Positions 2,303 through 9,183 of a stretch of 10,770 bases of DNA are shown one piece after another (the stretch's first letter is position 1; every line of letters starts with the position of its first letter). The notes beneath the pieces are model-generated. The model did not search any database, was not told the origin of the DNA, and saw only the letters and a program-made list of their open reading frames with translations. The DNA comes from a virus: IMG/VR virus record IMGVR_UViG_3300009537_002073. The stretch is one strand, 5' to 3'. The translations under genes and the position numbers were made by a program.

Positions 2303-2599
2303 TTAAAGTACGGCGGGAACTACATCGAAATGAAATATTTTTGAAGTGGTTACTACAGCACCTGTGGATATCACTTGATAACTCCAAGTGCCCGGCGTAT
2401 TAAGAGTTAAATCATAATAAAATACCCCAAGTCCGTCTCTGGTTATAACTCCGGGGTATACATAAGATATTGTGGCTGCATCTTTGCCGGGGCGCACCTT
2501 AATGGTTACTGTAGTAGGGTCCACTAAATTGGAATTTATATCCTTAAAGGTAGCTTTTATCCTACGAAGGTTACCTTGTATAATTTGTTCGTTGGCCAT
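2303..2599 (-). CDS. Hypothetical 98-aa beta-rich protein, translationally coupled to the giant repeat protein
   Basis: ATG 2599 overlaps the TAA stop of the upstream gene (TAATG at 2597-2601). The stop is TAA at 2303-2305. Confidence 0.7.
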   Translation of the reverse strand: MANEQIIQGNLRRIKATFKDINSNLVDPTTVTIKVRPGKDAATISYVYPGVITRDGLGVFYYDLTLNTPGTWSYQVISTGAVVTTSKIFHFDVVPAVL

Positions 2600-5500
2600 T
2601 AAGGACTTTTTGCCTCTACACTAACGGTGTATAACAGATCCTTGTCAATTTTAGAAAAATGCGCCTCCAAAAGCTCAATTGCTGCTTGATATAGAGCAGA
2701 AACTTCTATTACTAAAGAACTAAAATCCGAAGTAAAATAAACTATTATACTATCAGTTACGGCTACATTTTCATTTAAAACAACTCTAAATAGTTTCTGG
2801 ATTACCGTAGTTGCAAGATCTGTGACCACAACAGAATCGTTGATCGCCCTACCTGCATCTAAATGCCGTTGTACACTATCAGAGAGTGATATATTATCAT
2901 CAGCGGTCACAAAAATAGCTGTCTCAATTACTTCACTAAAAATTGACTCTATAGAAACAATCGAATCCGCTGCGCCTCTACTAAAATCAACTGTGGTGGC
3001 TAATAGATCTGTTAAGGCCGCGGTATCCCCTACCACCACATTAATAGCCCCGGTTACAAGTTCTCCATCCGCATTGTCTGTAACCGATATACTATCAATT
3101 ATGGTCCTAGTATAATCTAGAACTATAGATACTAAATCCGTTAAAGAAATACTATCGGACAATACACGTAAATAATCTACACTAAAAGAAGAAGTATCTA
3201 CTACAGATACTGCATCTACTATAGATCTTAAATATTCAAAATTAATTAAAACAGAATCAGTGGTAGTTATACTGTCATGTCGTGAAACGCCAAATTCCCA
3301 ATATGTAGCGTCAGCAACTACCGCCGTATCCGCTATTTCTTTTAGCAGTTCTGTCGAAGTTTTGGTTGTATCTGCAACGCTAATACTGTCATTTATACCG
3401 GGGTCAAATTCCCAACTACTTAAGTCTGTGATAGAAATCGTATCCGCTAAAACTTTAAGGAAATCTAATCCAGCCCCAGTAACATCACTAACCTCTATAG
3501 AGTCATTTATTCCTGGATCAAACTCCCAAGAAGCGGAATCTGATACTTCCGCTAGGTCCGACAAATTACGTAAATAATCTAATAAATACTGTATAGTGTC
3601 TACCGTGGATATGGTATCGGATATACCAGGGTCAAACTCCCACGACACCGTATCAATTAACGATGCTATATCACTTACATCACGTAAATAATCTACACTA
3701 GAACTAGCTAAATCTACAAGGGCGGCACTATCACTTATACTGGGATTAAACTCCCAACTAGCTAAATCGGTTACGGAGACGGTATCTGATAGTACTTTAA
3801 GGAATTCTAACCCCGCTCCCGTAAAATCAGTCAATTCCACGCTATCGGCGATAGCTCTTAAATACTCTGAATATATAGAAGTATCGTCTGTTACAGATGT
3901 AACATCTGCTAAACTCCTAGAGAAAAATATATCTAAAGTAGCGGCATCAGCGACTGCAATAGAGTCAGACGGTCCTGGGTCGAATTCCCAACTCGTTGCA
4001 TCGACCACACTTACACTATCGTTTGTAAGTCTCAGGTACTCAAAAACAAGCGTAGTAGTATCTGTTACTGCTACTATATCAGATATTCCTGGGTCAAATT
4101 CCCATGAAGCAGTATCCGATACTGAAGAGGTGTCAATTATTTCTCGTAGATAGTCGAACCCTACATTCGCTGTGTCAGTAACCTCTATAGAATCTGTAAT
4201 ACCAGGGTCAAATTCCCAAGAAGCCGCATCTGCTAAAATGACGCTATCCGCTAATGTCTTCAGATAATCGAGGGCATTAACCGCCGTATCTGTAACAGAT
4301 ACAACGTCATTTACTCCTGGATCAAATTCCCAGGATGCTGTATCCACCAACGAAACTGAATCATTTAAGCTACGTAAGTAGTCAAACGAAATTAAGGCTA
4401 AATCCACTAAGCTAATAGTGTCCGAAGGCCCAGGGTCGAATGTCCAGCTTATTGCATCAGTAACAGAGGCGGTATCGTTCACCACCCGCAAGAGTTCTGA
4501 CACTTCCAACGCGGCATCTAAATTGTCAGAAACTACTAATGTATCGTCCGGACTAGGATCAAATGTCCAACTAGTGGCATCGCTCAAACTAATAGAGTCG
4601 CTTAAAGCTCTTAAATACTCTAAGATTGGCGTATTGCTATCAGCAATAGACACCACATCTTTTGGGCTCGGATCGAACGTCCAAGACGTTACCTCGGCTA
4701 AAGATGCTGTATCAGTTATCGGTCGAACATAATTAGTATTAAAAATATTGCTCTCTGTTAAGACTGCAGAGTCTTGTAAATTTCTCCCAAAGAAGGTAGT
4801 TCTTGCTAGAGTATCAGAAACACTAGCAGTATCTTGTATCTCCTTATTAGACTGCGTTCCTCGCGCTATAGTATCTGTAACCGCTACGGTATCGGCCGGT
4901 TTCCGTAGAAACGAGGTTGTTCGGTTTATTGTGTCTGTAAGTGCAACAGTATCATTTACTGTTCTAGTTATGGCAGGAGCGGTCCACGGCCCGCGTAAAT
5001 AATCATCTGATAAATTGACTCTTAATGTACATGTTTGAGTACCGTGTGAAGCAGGTCGTCCAATCGCGCATAAGATCTCATACCTATCCCCTGCATCCCC
5101 TGCAGTCCAAGAAACACTGCCGGTGCTCGCGGCTTTAAGCCCCGTTCCTGAGAAAGCTGTTTGTGTTTGTGCTTTAGTTTCTAAATCTGCTGTAACCCCT
5201 GAATTAACCCGCGCAAAGTGCCCAACAGCTGTCCCAATTGTGCGCATTCCGTATGTTATATCTGCTCCAACTGCAGTACAATCCAATTGAGCTTCATAGT
5301 TTCCTGTTGGCCATGCTGCAGAATTTGGATTATTTGCTTGGGTTGTGAACATAGCAAATAATCTACTCTCCCCTCCAGTGATATTTGTAGAGGTTACAGT
5401 CCCAGCCGTACTAGTAGTTGTTAACGCTACCATAATATTTGAAGCGCCCGTATGCACCGTACTCGTTCCAGTGGTGTCACTCTGATAGTAAGTTATGGTC

Positions 5501-7466: not shown

Positions 7467-9183
7467 CTAAAGCCTCCGATAATCGATTAATATTATAGTC
7501 GGCTTCTTCAAATACCACACGTGGTGCGTTATCTGGTAATAAATCTTTAACACGTCTTGCCCAATGCAGCGCTTCCTTACCCTTCCCCAACGCTGAATAA
7601 CACATAGCCAAACGTTGAGCAGTTATATAAGAATATGTAGCTAGGTCAATCCACCAAATAGTAAAGGGAGGGTTTCCACAACAAGTACCTGCATACCTAT
7701 AAAACTGCAAGGCTTCCTCATAATTTTCAGCATCAAAAGCTAAATCCCCTAACCAAACCCAATGCTCAACTCTGCTCCAATCATCTTGCGTTGCTCCTAC
7801 CAACAGGGTCCTAGCTTCGGCCAAGTTCCCTTCTTGCATCTGCATTTTAGCTAAAATTAATCTTGCCTGATACCGCATAGGACCGTTCTTCGACGGTAAC
7901 TGTAGATACTGCTCCAAACGAGCCATCGCACGTTTTTTATCGTATTCCCGCCACTCGGAACCTAAATAATAAAGACTTTCTTCATTTCCTTTCACTATCC
8001 AATCTTCAAATAAAGTCTTTCTATTCTGTACCTTACGTTGCTCTTTTCGTGCTAACTCTTTATCTTTAGTGCGTTCATGCATGGTTCTGATTTCAGGTAA
8101 TTTAACCATGTAAGAACCTACAGGATAATCTAATATGTTGTGGGTAGACCGTGTATACCTGAAACGCTTATCATTTATACACAACCAAGGAAATCCCCAC
8201 TGTTGTCCGGTACCTTGCCTTAACACCATACCTATTTGTGCTTTATTTGGTAATATATCTCCAAGGCGTAATAAGGTATCCTCGCCCGTAAACAACCTTT
8301 CATGTCCCTCGGTCATAAAAATCCAGTCTTTCGTACACCTATCCATACATTGATTGCGTATATGAGAAAAGTGTACGCCGCCATCCGGCATCTTTTTATC
8401 TTTAGGCCCCTCTGGGCTGTCCAACTCGAACACTACCTCTGCATACTGTTCAGCTATCTCCCTGGACCTGTCGGTAGATCGTGGGTCTACTCCTATGACC
8501 ATTTCGTCGGCAGCCCCACGAAAAGATGCTAGTGTAGCTTCTAAATCATCTTCCTCATCTTTAACCGGCATACAAACTGAAAGCTTTAGTTTTTTTTCTA
8601 CACCACATATACCTAATAGGTATGGCCCAAGAACCTCTACCCGTACATTGTCTTTATACCAGTTCCTTAAATATGTAAGGAATGAAAGGGCAGTAAATTT
8701 AATAGTGTGCTGTGGTTCTTCTTCGGGTCCTAGCCGATTATTAGGCACAGAAAAGAACGCCAGCGGACTATGTTTATGTGTCGCAGCTAGAATTCTATCT
8801 CTACCTGTTTGGATAAGATGTTCGAGTATCTCAGTACCAACTACTACACAATTAGGTTTTATTGCTAAATCCCCGAGCAAATTTAGGTCAAGACACACGG
8901 TGTCTAAGCCTAAACTTTTAGCCCCTTTCAGGGCTTCAGTAGAATGGTCTACTATAGTAATCCGTGAAGCTTTTTCTTTCTGGAGAGAGTCTCCTAATAT
9001 ACCTATACCTCCGCCTAAATCTATAACATCACTGTCATACGGTACTAGGCGTATAATACGTCTATAAATACGTGATAGCGCCTCTTTGCGCCACGTATCT
9101 TCTCCCTCTGTTCGCCATAGACCGTCCCATAAATCTACAGCGTTTGCTTTTTTTGCATTTTCATCAATTTGATGCTGTTCCAT
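7453..9183 (-). CDS. Three-domain fusion of 576 aa: N-terminal class-I SAM-dependent methyltransferase, central family-2 glycosyltransferase (GT-A fold), C-terminal TPR repeats
   Basis: The methyltransferase motif I is VIDLGGGIGILG, followed by an acidic post-I residue (IVDHS) and a CVVVGTEILEHL motif. The GT2 signature is LSVCMPVKDEEDDLEATLASF...MVIGVDPRSTDRS. TPR-like helical repeats occur at residues ~400-560 (e.g. YYLGSEW, AEARTLL, ALQFYRYAG, AMCYSALGKGKEALHWARRV). Confidence 0.9.
   Translation of the reverse strand: MEQHQIDENAKKANAVDLWDGLWRTEGEDTWRKEALSRIYRRIIRLVPYDSDVIDLGGGIGILGDSLQKEKASRITIVDHSTEALKGAKSLGLDTVCLDLNLLGDLAIKPNCVVVGTEILEHLIQTGRDRILAATHKHSPLAFFSVPNNRLGPEEEPQHTIKFTALSFLTYLRNWYKDNVRVEVLGPYLLGICGVEKKLKLSVCMPVKDEEDDLEATLASFRGAADEMVIGVDPRSTDRSREIAEQYAEVVFELDSPEGPKDKKMPDGGVHFSHIRNQCMDRCTKDWIFMTEGHERLFTGEDTLLRLGDILPNKAQIGMVLRQGTGQQWGFPWLCINDKRFRYTRSTHNILDYPVGSYMVKLPEIRTMHERTKDKELARKEQRKVQNRKTLFEDWIVKGNEESLYYLGSEWREYDKKRAMARLEQYLQLPSKNGPMRYQARLILAKMQMQEGNLAEARTLLVGATQDDWSRVEHWVWLGDLAFDAENYEEALQFYRYAGTCCGNPPFTIWWIDLATYSYITAQRLAMCYSALGKGKEALHWARRVKDLLPDNAPRVVFEEADYNINRLSEALDGST

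Follow-up and report, generated by a model that had tools for sequence, protein, structure and literature searches.

A methyltransferase-glycosyltransferase-TPR fusion enzyme strictly linked to a small tail-fibre/baseplate-type protein: a candidate virion-fibre modification cassette of uncultivated tailed phages

The viral DNA analyzed here (IMG/VR record IMGVR_UViG_3300009537_002073, 10,770 nt; this whole stretch is called the window below) carries all its substantial open reading frames (ORFs) on the minus strand. A search for homologues showed the window to be an entire JGI metagenome contig of 10,770 bp. The genes are lettered A to H in order from the high-coordinate end, which is the 5' end on that strand. 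Gene B (7453-9183, minus strand, 576 aa) encodes a soluble fusion enzyme that combines an S-adenosylmethionine (SAM) methyltransferase, a GT-A glycosyltransferase and a tetratricopeptide repeat (TPR) domain. Gene C (6978-7466, minus strand, 162 aa) overlaps B by 14 nt and encodes a beta-rich protein of the phrog_5417 tail-fibre/baseplate family. In our reading, the region belongs to an uncultivated tailed phage and is a late-gene cassette for virion fibres, with B and C as its core and usually accompanied by a Zn-ribbon gene (D) and a gene for a giant repeat protein (F). B would be a cytoplasmic, protein-directed enzyme modifying virion fibre proteins, with C as the likeliest primary substrate or partner and F as a second one where it is present. 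We put the probability of this reading at about 0.45. The reasoning behind it is that B is always inherited with C and, in most cases, together with a long repeat fibre; B therefore probably decorates virion fibre proteins.

The three domains of B, which had been proposed from the sequence alone in the original prediction, were recovered by Pfam, by an alignment of 29 sequences and by structural modelling. Residues 1-195 (8599-9183, minus strand) form a class I SAM-methyltransferase domain, residues 196-372 (8068-8598, minus strand) a GT2-like GT-A domain in which E-G-H-E replaces the DxD motif, and residues 373-576 (7456-8067, minus strand) an all-helical TPR domain. Pfam Glycos_transf_2 (PF00535) matches residues 202-291 with an E-value of 2.9e-7 (31 bits for a cut-off of 23.3). 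TPR_2 is matched with 29 bits for a cut-off of 27, and TPR_16 and TPR_19 also match the region of residues 373-576. The methyltransferase models of Pfam remain below their cut-off for the window copy of B (MTS, 5.4e-4; Methyltransf_23, 6.5e-3). Many homologues of B are annotated as Methyltransf_23, Methyltransf_25 or MetW, which backs the presence of this domain. The AlphaFold model is of high quality (predicted local distance difference test, pLDDT, 91; predicted template modelling score, pTM, 0.86). It shows a Rossmann-type domain followed by a GT-A domain and an all-helical C-terminus (helices 373-575), and it contains no membrane segment. When the model was compared with PDB using Foldseek, SunS and ThuS came out on top (E-value 4e-15). 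The N-terminal domain matched CysG, BelI, TehB-like proteins and sugar C-methyltransferases (E-value around 1e-7), and the C-terminus matched consensus TPR proteins and the TPR of OGT.

Conservation at the active-site positions was evaluated on the same 29 aligned sequences, whose mean column identity is 54%. The SAM motif D-x-G-G-G-x-G (D55-L-G-G-G-I-G61) is invariant at D55, G57, G58, G59 and G61, and the acidic residue closing the next strand of the methyltransferase (beta-2, V-D-H-S) is conserved. In the GT-A domain the invariant residues include D233, D238, E292, H294, E295, H348 and H369. By our reading of the GT2 consensus, the segment G231-V-D233-P-R-S-T-D238 fits the nucleotide-binding acids of 'DDGSTD'-like segments. 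In the original prediction, a lack of catalytic DxD-type residues in the GT2 domain was named as an outcome that would speak against it. The strict motif is absent: the D-A-D-E of the Listeria enzyme GmaR aligns with E292-G-H294-E295, invariant in all 29 sequences. An invariant acid-x-His thus occupies the position, and the downstream residues H348 and H369 are kept, aligned with two histidines of GmaR in the profile alignment. The E292-G-H294 triplet resembles the DxH-type metal sites of some GT-A families. As judged from these alignments, E-G-H-E would be a variant rather than a dead active site, and the activity of the domain is not refuted.

By profile and by model comparison, the solved relatives nearest to B are SunS, ThuS and GmaR, glycosyltransferases that carry helical-repeat domains and act on proteins or peptides. 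GmaR, the flagellin O-GlcNAc transferase of Listeria monocytogenes, was retrieved by the profile of B among PDB sequences (E-value 1e-9, over B residues 200-393). Like B, it has a GT-A domain followed by TPR, and both downstream histidines are common to the two proteins. Unlike B, it has the canonical D-A-D (E-G-H in B) and an additional antirepressor domain, has no methyltransferase and is bacterial. GmaR acts on a filament-forming structural protein, and its TPR has been proposed to recognise flagellin (PMC9638930). The glycocin S-glycosyltransferases SunS and ThuS give the best structural match to the GT-A and helical-repeat part of B, with target-normalised TM-scores of 0.56-0.68. They share only 12-14% sequence identity with B, have no methyltransferase domain and, instead of a virion protein, modify a small secreted bacteriocin precursor. 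SunS is phage-borne like B (SPbeta prophage). The peptide substrate of SunS and ThuS is encoded beside the enzyme gene.

Two further systems were considered for their design or their function. In FlmG of Caulobacter crescentus, specificity for flagellin lies in a TPR module, and sugar transfer is carried out by another one (PMC7591256). FlmG is bacterial and acts on flagellins, and it is likened to B for this modular design alone, as taken from its description. In mycobacteriophages, phage-encoded enzymes put glycans on virion structural proteins, at the C-termini of capsid and tail-tube subunits, according to the account of Freeman et al. 2023 given in PMC12619734. No sequence similarity between B and these enzymes was detected (tblastn search with B in 50,697 deposited phage genomes, E-value 1e-5). 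To our knowledge, virion glycosylation is established only in mycobacteriophages, which offer the only precedent for the function proposed for B. In terms of function, GmaR, SunS/ThuS and FlmG come closest to B, and among virion systems it is that of the mycobacteriophages. With GmaR and SunS, B has in common the GT-A-plus-TPR design and a distant homology. B stands apart from the known systems by its ExH motif, its fused methyltransferase, its viral setting (bacterial for GmaR and FlmG) and its association with a dedicated small fibre protein.

The association between B and C was quantified on a set of 83 loci, comprising 35 distinct loci with B and others fetched through C or F. When loci with at least 600 nt downstream of B are considered, C lies directly downstream of B in 33 cases out of 33, at distances ranging from -7 to +357 nt. 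The mean pairwise identity is 0.60 for C compared to 0.52 for B. The identity matrices of the two proteins are correlated (Mantel r 0.76), a value which is reached in 0 of 2000 permutations. C, the only gene never separated from B, also co-varies with it, and for these reasons we favour C as primary substrate or partner of the enzyme.

Several lines of evidence bear on the nature of C. Its profile match is phrog_5417 (E-value 5.6e-10), a family of small baseplate/tail-fibre proteins. Its model is mostly beta and of moderate confidence (pLDDT 68); the structural matches of this model are baseplate and tail-fibre proteins, and those found in BFVD include an annotated tail fibre and a tail collar fibre. 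Comparison of the C profile with PDB sequences gave matches at chance level only. Distant relatives of C (25-34% identity) are found without B in two settings. The first is a T4-like baseplate module (hub-lysozyme, gp6-like, gp7-like, C-like, wedge subunit), where the relative of C matches phrog_5417 with an E-value of 2.2e-26 and also phrog_4176, a 'tail fiber protein'. The second is the position following the gene of central tail fibre J. Given the family match, the matches of the model and the location of the relatives in tail modules, C is classified here, from sequence and model, as a small virion protein of the tail-fibre/baseplate periphery. Within phrog_5417, the B-linked subfamily is distinguished by its unusual conservation (60-80% identity) and by four short Ser/Thr/Gly/Pro-rich insertions (RDGKxGPEV, GTRT, GSKSAT and NTSPGGS). 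These insertions are absent from general phrog_5417 relatives, in a comparison that included loci L053, L060, L063 and L067-L081. It is tempting to speculate that they are modification or recognition loops.

The distribution of B places it in tailed phages. More than 300 full-length homologues are present in the protein database at 50-60% identity. The contigs that carry them range from a few kb to 404 kb and are tailed-phage contigs, on which the neighbours include Baseplate_J, sheath initiator, Phage_base_V and terminase genes. A profile search covering 1.84 billion cluster representatives returned 124 proteins at E-values of 1e-30 or less, about 25-30 of which are full-length. The two halves of B also exist separately. 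The GT-A and TPR half (profile positions about 199-552) occurs without the methyltransferase in many proteins of 350-1400 aa, and the methyltransferase half is represented by stand-alone proteins of about 190 aa that match the N-terminal domain only (E-values 1e-30 to 1e-36). We read the occurrence of unfused halves elsewhere as a sign of functional linkage between them.

One synteny group shows the order terminase, portal, minor head protein, protease, major capsid protein, four small genes, B, C, (Zn ribbon), giant repeat protein, head-tail adaptor and Neck1. In all, the cassette was found in at least four genome contexts: in such a head/neck module, beside a divergent terminase and integrase region, beside baseplate genes of the opposite strand, and in the window. 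This diversity argues for a unit which has been moved or retained as a whole, beyond synteny within one lineage. The minimal form of the cassette is found in locus L083 and consists of B, C, a Zn-ribbon remnant and a 1779-aa homologue of F which shares the N-terminal domain of F. It is flanked by a divergently transcribed terminase gene and by an integrase-containing block.

Searches against 50,697 deposited phage genomes, by megablast for the window and by tblastn for B, C and F, gave no match; for B, nothing was found at 1e-5, and relaxing the E-value to 1 brought up nothing but short, marginal similarities with unrelated records. Annotations can thus not be transferred from any cultured relative. 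A motif scan for B in 185,579 GTDB representative genomes found no relative, and a look-up of the exact B sequence on public contigs returned no record. Since B was found neither in deposited phage genomes nor in GTDB genomes, its family looks confined to uncultivated, probably lytic phages, and the absence of a GTDB relative means that no host can be inferred.

The following scheme would account for these observations. The C-terminal TPR domain of B would dock a virion fibre protein before assembly, and the GT-A domain would transfer a sugar from a nucleotide sugar. By analogy with DxH-type sites, the metal site of this domain would be built of E292-x-H294 and a downstream histidine. The N-terminal SAM-methyltransferase would methylate the sugar, or possibly the protein. 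C would be the most likely primary substrate or partner, and F a possible second substrate in the phages which have it. In this scheme the protein-directed activity of B, the identity of its substrate, the sugar and the methyl acceptor are what we infer; the architecture of B, the conservation of its active-site positions, its linkage to C and co-variation with it, the fibre or baseplate nature of C and the phage origin are observed.

A number of points weigh against this scheme. The adjacency and co-variation of B and C could stem from the shared descent of a syntenic block. The pLDDT of 68 makes the fold matches of C suggestive, not firm. Members of the same C subfamily (60-70% identity) are found in L053, L060 and L063 with no B within 10 kb upstream, nor were these loci among those retrieved by the motif scan for B; on partial genomes at least, C is thus not always accompanied by B. 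In these three contigs, C follows the tape measure, baseplate wedge and collagen-like tail fibre genes, and precedes an F-like protein. Concerning B itself, the canonical DxD is lost, and in terms of phage families the protein matches phrog_13126, which is filed in the category 'moron, auxiliary metabolic gene and host takeover'. Finally, most GT2 enzymes make polysaccharides or glycolipids.

The giant repeat protein F (2599-6105, minus strand, 1168 aa) had been considered in the original prediction as the partner of the enzyme. F is fibre-like and contains 22% Ser+Thr and 10.7% Asp. Its N-terminal domain (residues 1-375, 4981-6105, minus strand) is non-repetitive and is conserved at 40-51% identity in about ten proteins. 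The Ser/Thr/Asp-rich repeat shaft that follows (2599-4980, minus strand) is made of 19/20-aa units arranged in about twelve 38-aa SW[ET]FDPG super-repeats. These repeats have diverged at the DNA level and are visible only in the protein, Tandem Repeats Finder giving nothing relevant on the DNA of F. F matches phrog_12240 (E-value 3.2e-9) and has no match in Pfam or among PDB sequences. The D-[ST]-[VIA]-x-[VL]-[ST]-D pattern of the shaft, with its alternation of hydrophobic and polar residues, suggests a beta-structured fibre shaft. Such a pattern provides a structural explanation for the abundance of Ser and Thr, which is thus not in itself a sign of glycosylation.

F-like proteins were counted from tblastn results, a hidden Markov model of the twelve 38-aa units having proved too narrow (it missed relatives found by tblastn). 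Among loci with at least 8 kb downstream of B, an F-like repeat protein is present on the same strand in 19 of 26, 0.75-9.3 kb downstream of B. None is present over the 10 kb of sequence available downstream in the remaining seven B-C loci. F-like proteins or the N-terminal domain of F also occur without B, in L053, L060, L063 and L082; one homologue of the N-terminal domain is found without B or C and is followed by a BppU_N (baseplate upper protein) gene. The expected co-occurrence of the enzyme with repeat proteins is therefore real, as seen in these 19 loci and in the minimal cassette of L083, and it is not general: the coupling of the enzyme to the repeat fibre is frequent, whereas its obligate partner is C. 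With regard to location, the group-1 loci (e.g. L013, 9974-18797) have B, C and the giant repeat protein between the major capsid block and the head-tail adaptor/Neck1 genes, and in other phages the genes preceding C and the F-like protein are those of baseplate and tail fibre. Given these differing locations, the attachment site of the fibre may vary between phages, being the neck or head in some and the baseplate in others.

It follows from these counts that F can be rejected as the sole substrate of B, since seven B-C loci are devoid of it and C is the invariant partner. A weaker form of the same idea, in which B O-glycosylates the regular Ser/Thr array of F as its main substrate, was the version put forward originally, the array being then described as an obvious O-glycosylation substrate. 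The arguments in its favour are the frequent presence of F downstream of B on the same strand, the B-C-(Zn ribbon)-F order of L083, the Ser+Thr content of F and the resemblance of B to protein and peptide glycosyltransferases. We nevertheless consider it unlikely. Besides the F-less loci and the B-less F-like proteins, F is far less conserved than B (27-30% compared to 50-60%), whereas C equals or exceeds B in this respect, and the repeat pattern looks structural.

According to another explanation, B acts on a glycan or small molecule outside the virion, such as a host envelope precursor or a methylated saccharide. The gene would then be cargo placed beside fibre genes, as seroconversion genes sit beside tailspike genes, and its TPR would be a generic scaffold. 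This would agree with the preference of most GT2 enzymes for non-protein acceptors, with the category under which phrog_13126 is filed and with the small-molecule and sugar methyltransferases present among the structural neighbours of the N-terminal domain. It would be less easily reconciled with the lack of a membrane segment in the model of B, with the strict linkage and co-variation of B and C, and with the fact that the closest solved relatives are peptide and protein glycosyltransferases. In addition, the B family was not found in bacterial genomes (the GTDB representatives), so that B is not a lysogenic-conversion gene. We regard this explanation as improbable, to the same degree as that of F as main substrate.

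A third proposal, that B is a catalytically inactive relic serving as a TPR-based assembly chaperone for C and F, can draw on the lost DxD, on the frequency of TPR domains in chaperones and on the 14-nt B-C overlap in the window and close spacing elsewhere, which would suit co-production, and is nevertheless very improbable, because the SAM motif and, at the metal and nucleotide positions of the GT-A domain, D233, D238, E292, H294, E295, H348 and H369 are invariant over the 29 sequences, a pattern typical of active sites under selection, and neither enzyme domain is shortened in the full-length cluster representatives (E-values 1e-141 to 1e-250).

The limits of the unit that contains B and C were then determined from the arrangement of the ORFs. 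Genes B to H are co-directional, and the successive junctions from B to H measure -14, 2, 18, 24, -1 and 4 nt, so that the tightly packed unit announced by the original prediction is borne out. Its upstream boundary is given by the 93-nt spacer between A and B, which holds the strongest terminator-like hairpin of the window (9227-9266, minus strand). Read on the coding strand, this hairpin extends from 9266 to 9227, has a 16-bp stem with 9 G-C pairs, and is followed by a T-run (GTTTTTCTAG). We take it as the boundary of the B-H unit, A being outside. At the other end the unit had been thought to stop at 2303, with gene G (2303-2599, minus strand, 98 aa), whose start overlaps the stop of F by 1 nt. 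Gene H (1837-2298, minus strand, 153 aa) begins 4 nt after G. As H is spaced as tightly as the rest, the unit most likely ends at 1837 and H is probably its last gene.

The other members of the unit differ in their conservation. D (6658-6975, minus strand, 105 aa) is a double Zn-ribbon protein, with two CxxC-x14-CxxxxC motifs read from the translation and weak matches to Pfam zinc fingers. Its second, C-terminal ribbon was found by tblastn just downstream of C in L002, L022, L030/L047, L036 and L083, and protein cluster 24, which corresponds to the D ribbon, is present in L013, L027, L031 and L036. Several loci thus have the second ribbon of D in the interval from C to the fibre gene. E (6130-6639, minus strand, 169 aa) begins with what appears on inspection to be a Sec-type signal peptide (MKYIGSILFLLSVFLALPSEAYA followed by VP, i.e. 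...LPSEAYA then VPNDP). It has no match in Pfam, PHROG or NCBIfam and no homologue in the related loci. One possibility is that E, as an insertion in the fibre cassette, serves in lysis, in exclusion or at the host surface. G has only a weak match to phrog_18294, and H matches no family in Pfam, PHROG or NCBIfam. The NCBIfam scan as a whole gave sub-threshold domain matches only. Of the members first assigned to the unit, D is therefore a recurrent element of the module in related loci, whereas E and G, like the added H, are not conserved with it: A, E, G, H and the phosphoesterase described below have no homologue in any related locus.

Beyond H, a gap of 287 nt (1550-1836) without convincing ORF separates the unit from a gene at 824-1549 (minus strand). 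The product of the latter is a calcineurin-like metallophosphoesterase, with matches to Pfam Metallophos (E-value 4.6e-13) and phrog_1649 (E-value 5e-42). No Rfam family and no tRNA lies in the gap, the Rfam and tRNA scans being negative for the whole window. The gap may hold a promoter, a terminator or a small unannotated gene. Near the low-coordinate end of the contig (232-715, minus strand), two small ORFs overlap by 62 nt. One encodes a very acidic protein of 93 aa (26% Asp+Glu), which has no family match, and the other a basic protein of 87 aa.

Gene A (9277-10719, minus strand, 480 aa), on the other side of the hairpin, is MVP-shoulder-like. It matches Pfam MVP_shoulder (E-value 3.1e-15) over the shoulder domain only, and does not show the full MVP repeat/cap-helix architecture. 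The MVP shoulder has an SPFH-like fold, and a shoulder/SPFH-like protein is unusual on a phage contig. The GC content of A is about 0.50, compared to about 0.40 for the rest of the window. No homologue of A is found beside any homologue of B, C or F in the 83 loci, and A has no match among PDB sequences. A vault-like particle associated with a decorated fibre had been imagined from the vicinity of A and F. We reject this combination in view of the strong terminator, the difference in GC content and the lack of co-occurrence in related loci.

A more general proposal can be made from these results, namely that the cassette belongs to a widespread and undescribed class of phage systems, in which a single enzyme with a non-canonical ExH GT-A site would both glycosylate and methylate receptor-binding or side-fibre proteins after their translation, and would travel between phage lineages in a cassette that includes a small fibre protein of its own. 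This generalization is doubtful at present, and we hold it with less assurance than the reading of the cassette itself. If it is true, the role of the modification would be to adjust host recognition or to protect the fibres against proteases or host defences. Virion glycosylation, known from the capsids and tail tubes of mycobacteriophages, would thereby be extended to tail fibres in environmental phages. Enzymologists and glyco-engineers would take an interest in the ExH variant of the GT-A metal site and in the fusion of a methyltransferase with a glycosyltransferase directed at proteins. The B-C pair is small, soluble and self-contained. Modification of fibres would then be common in uncultivated phages, relatives being present on contigs of about 40 kb to more than 400 kb, and would constitute a layer of host-range determination which is missed by sequence-based predictions of receptor binding.

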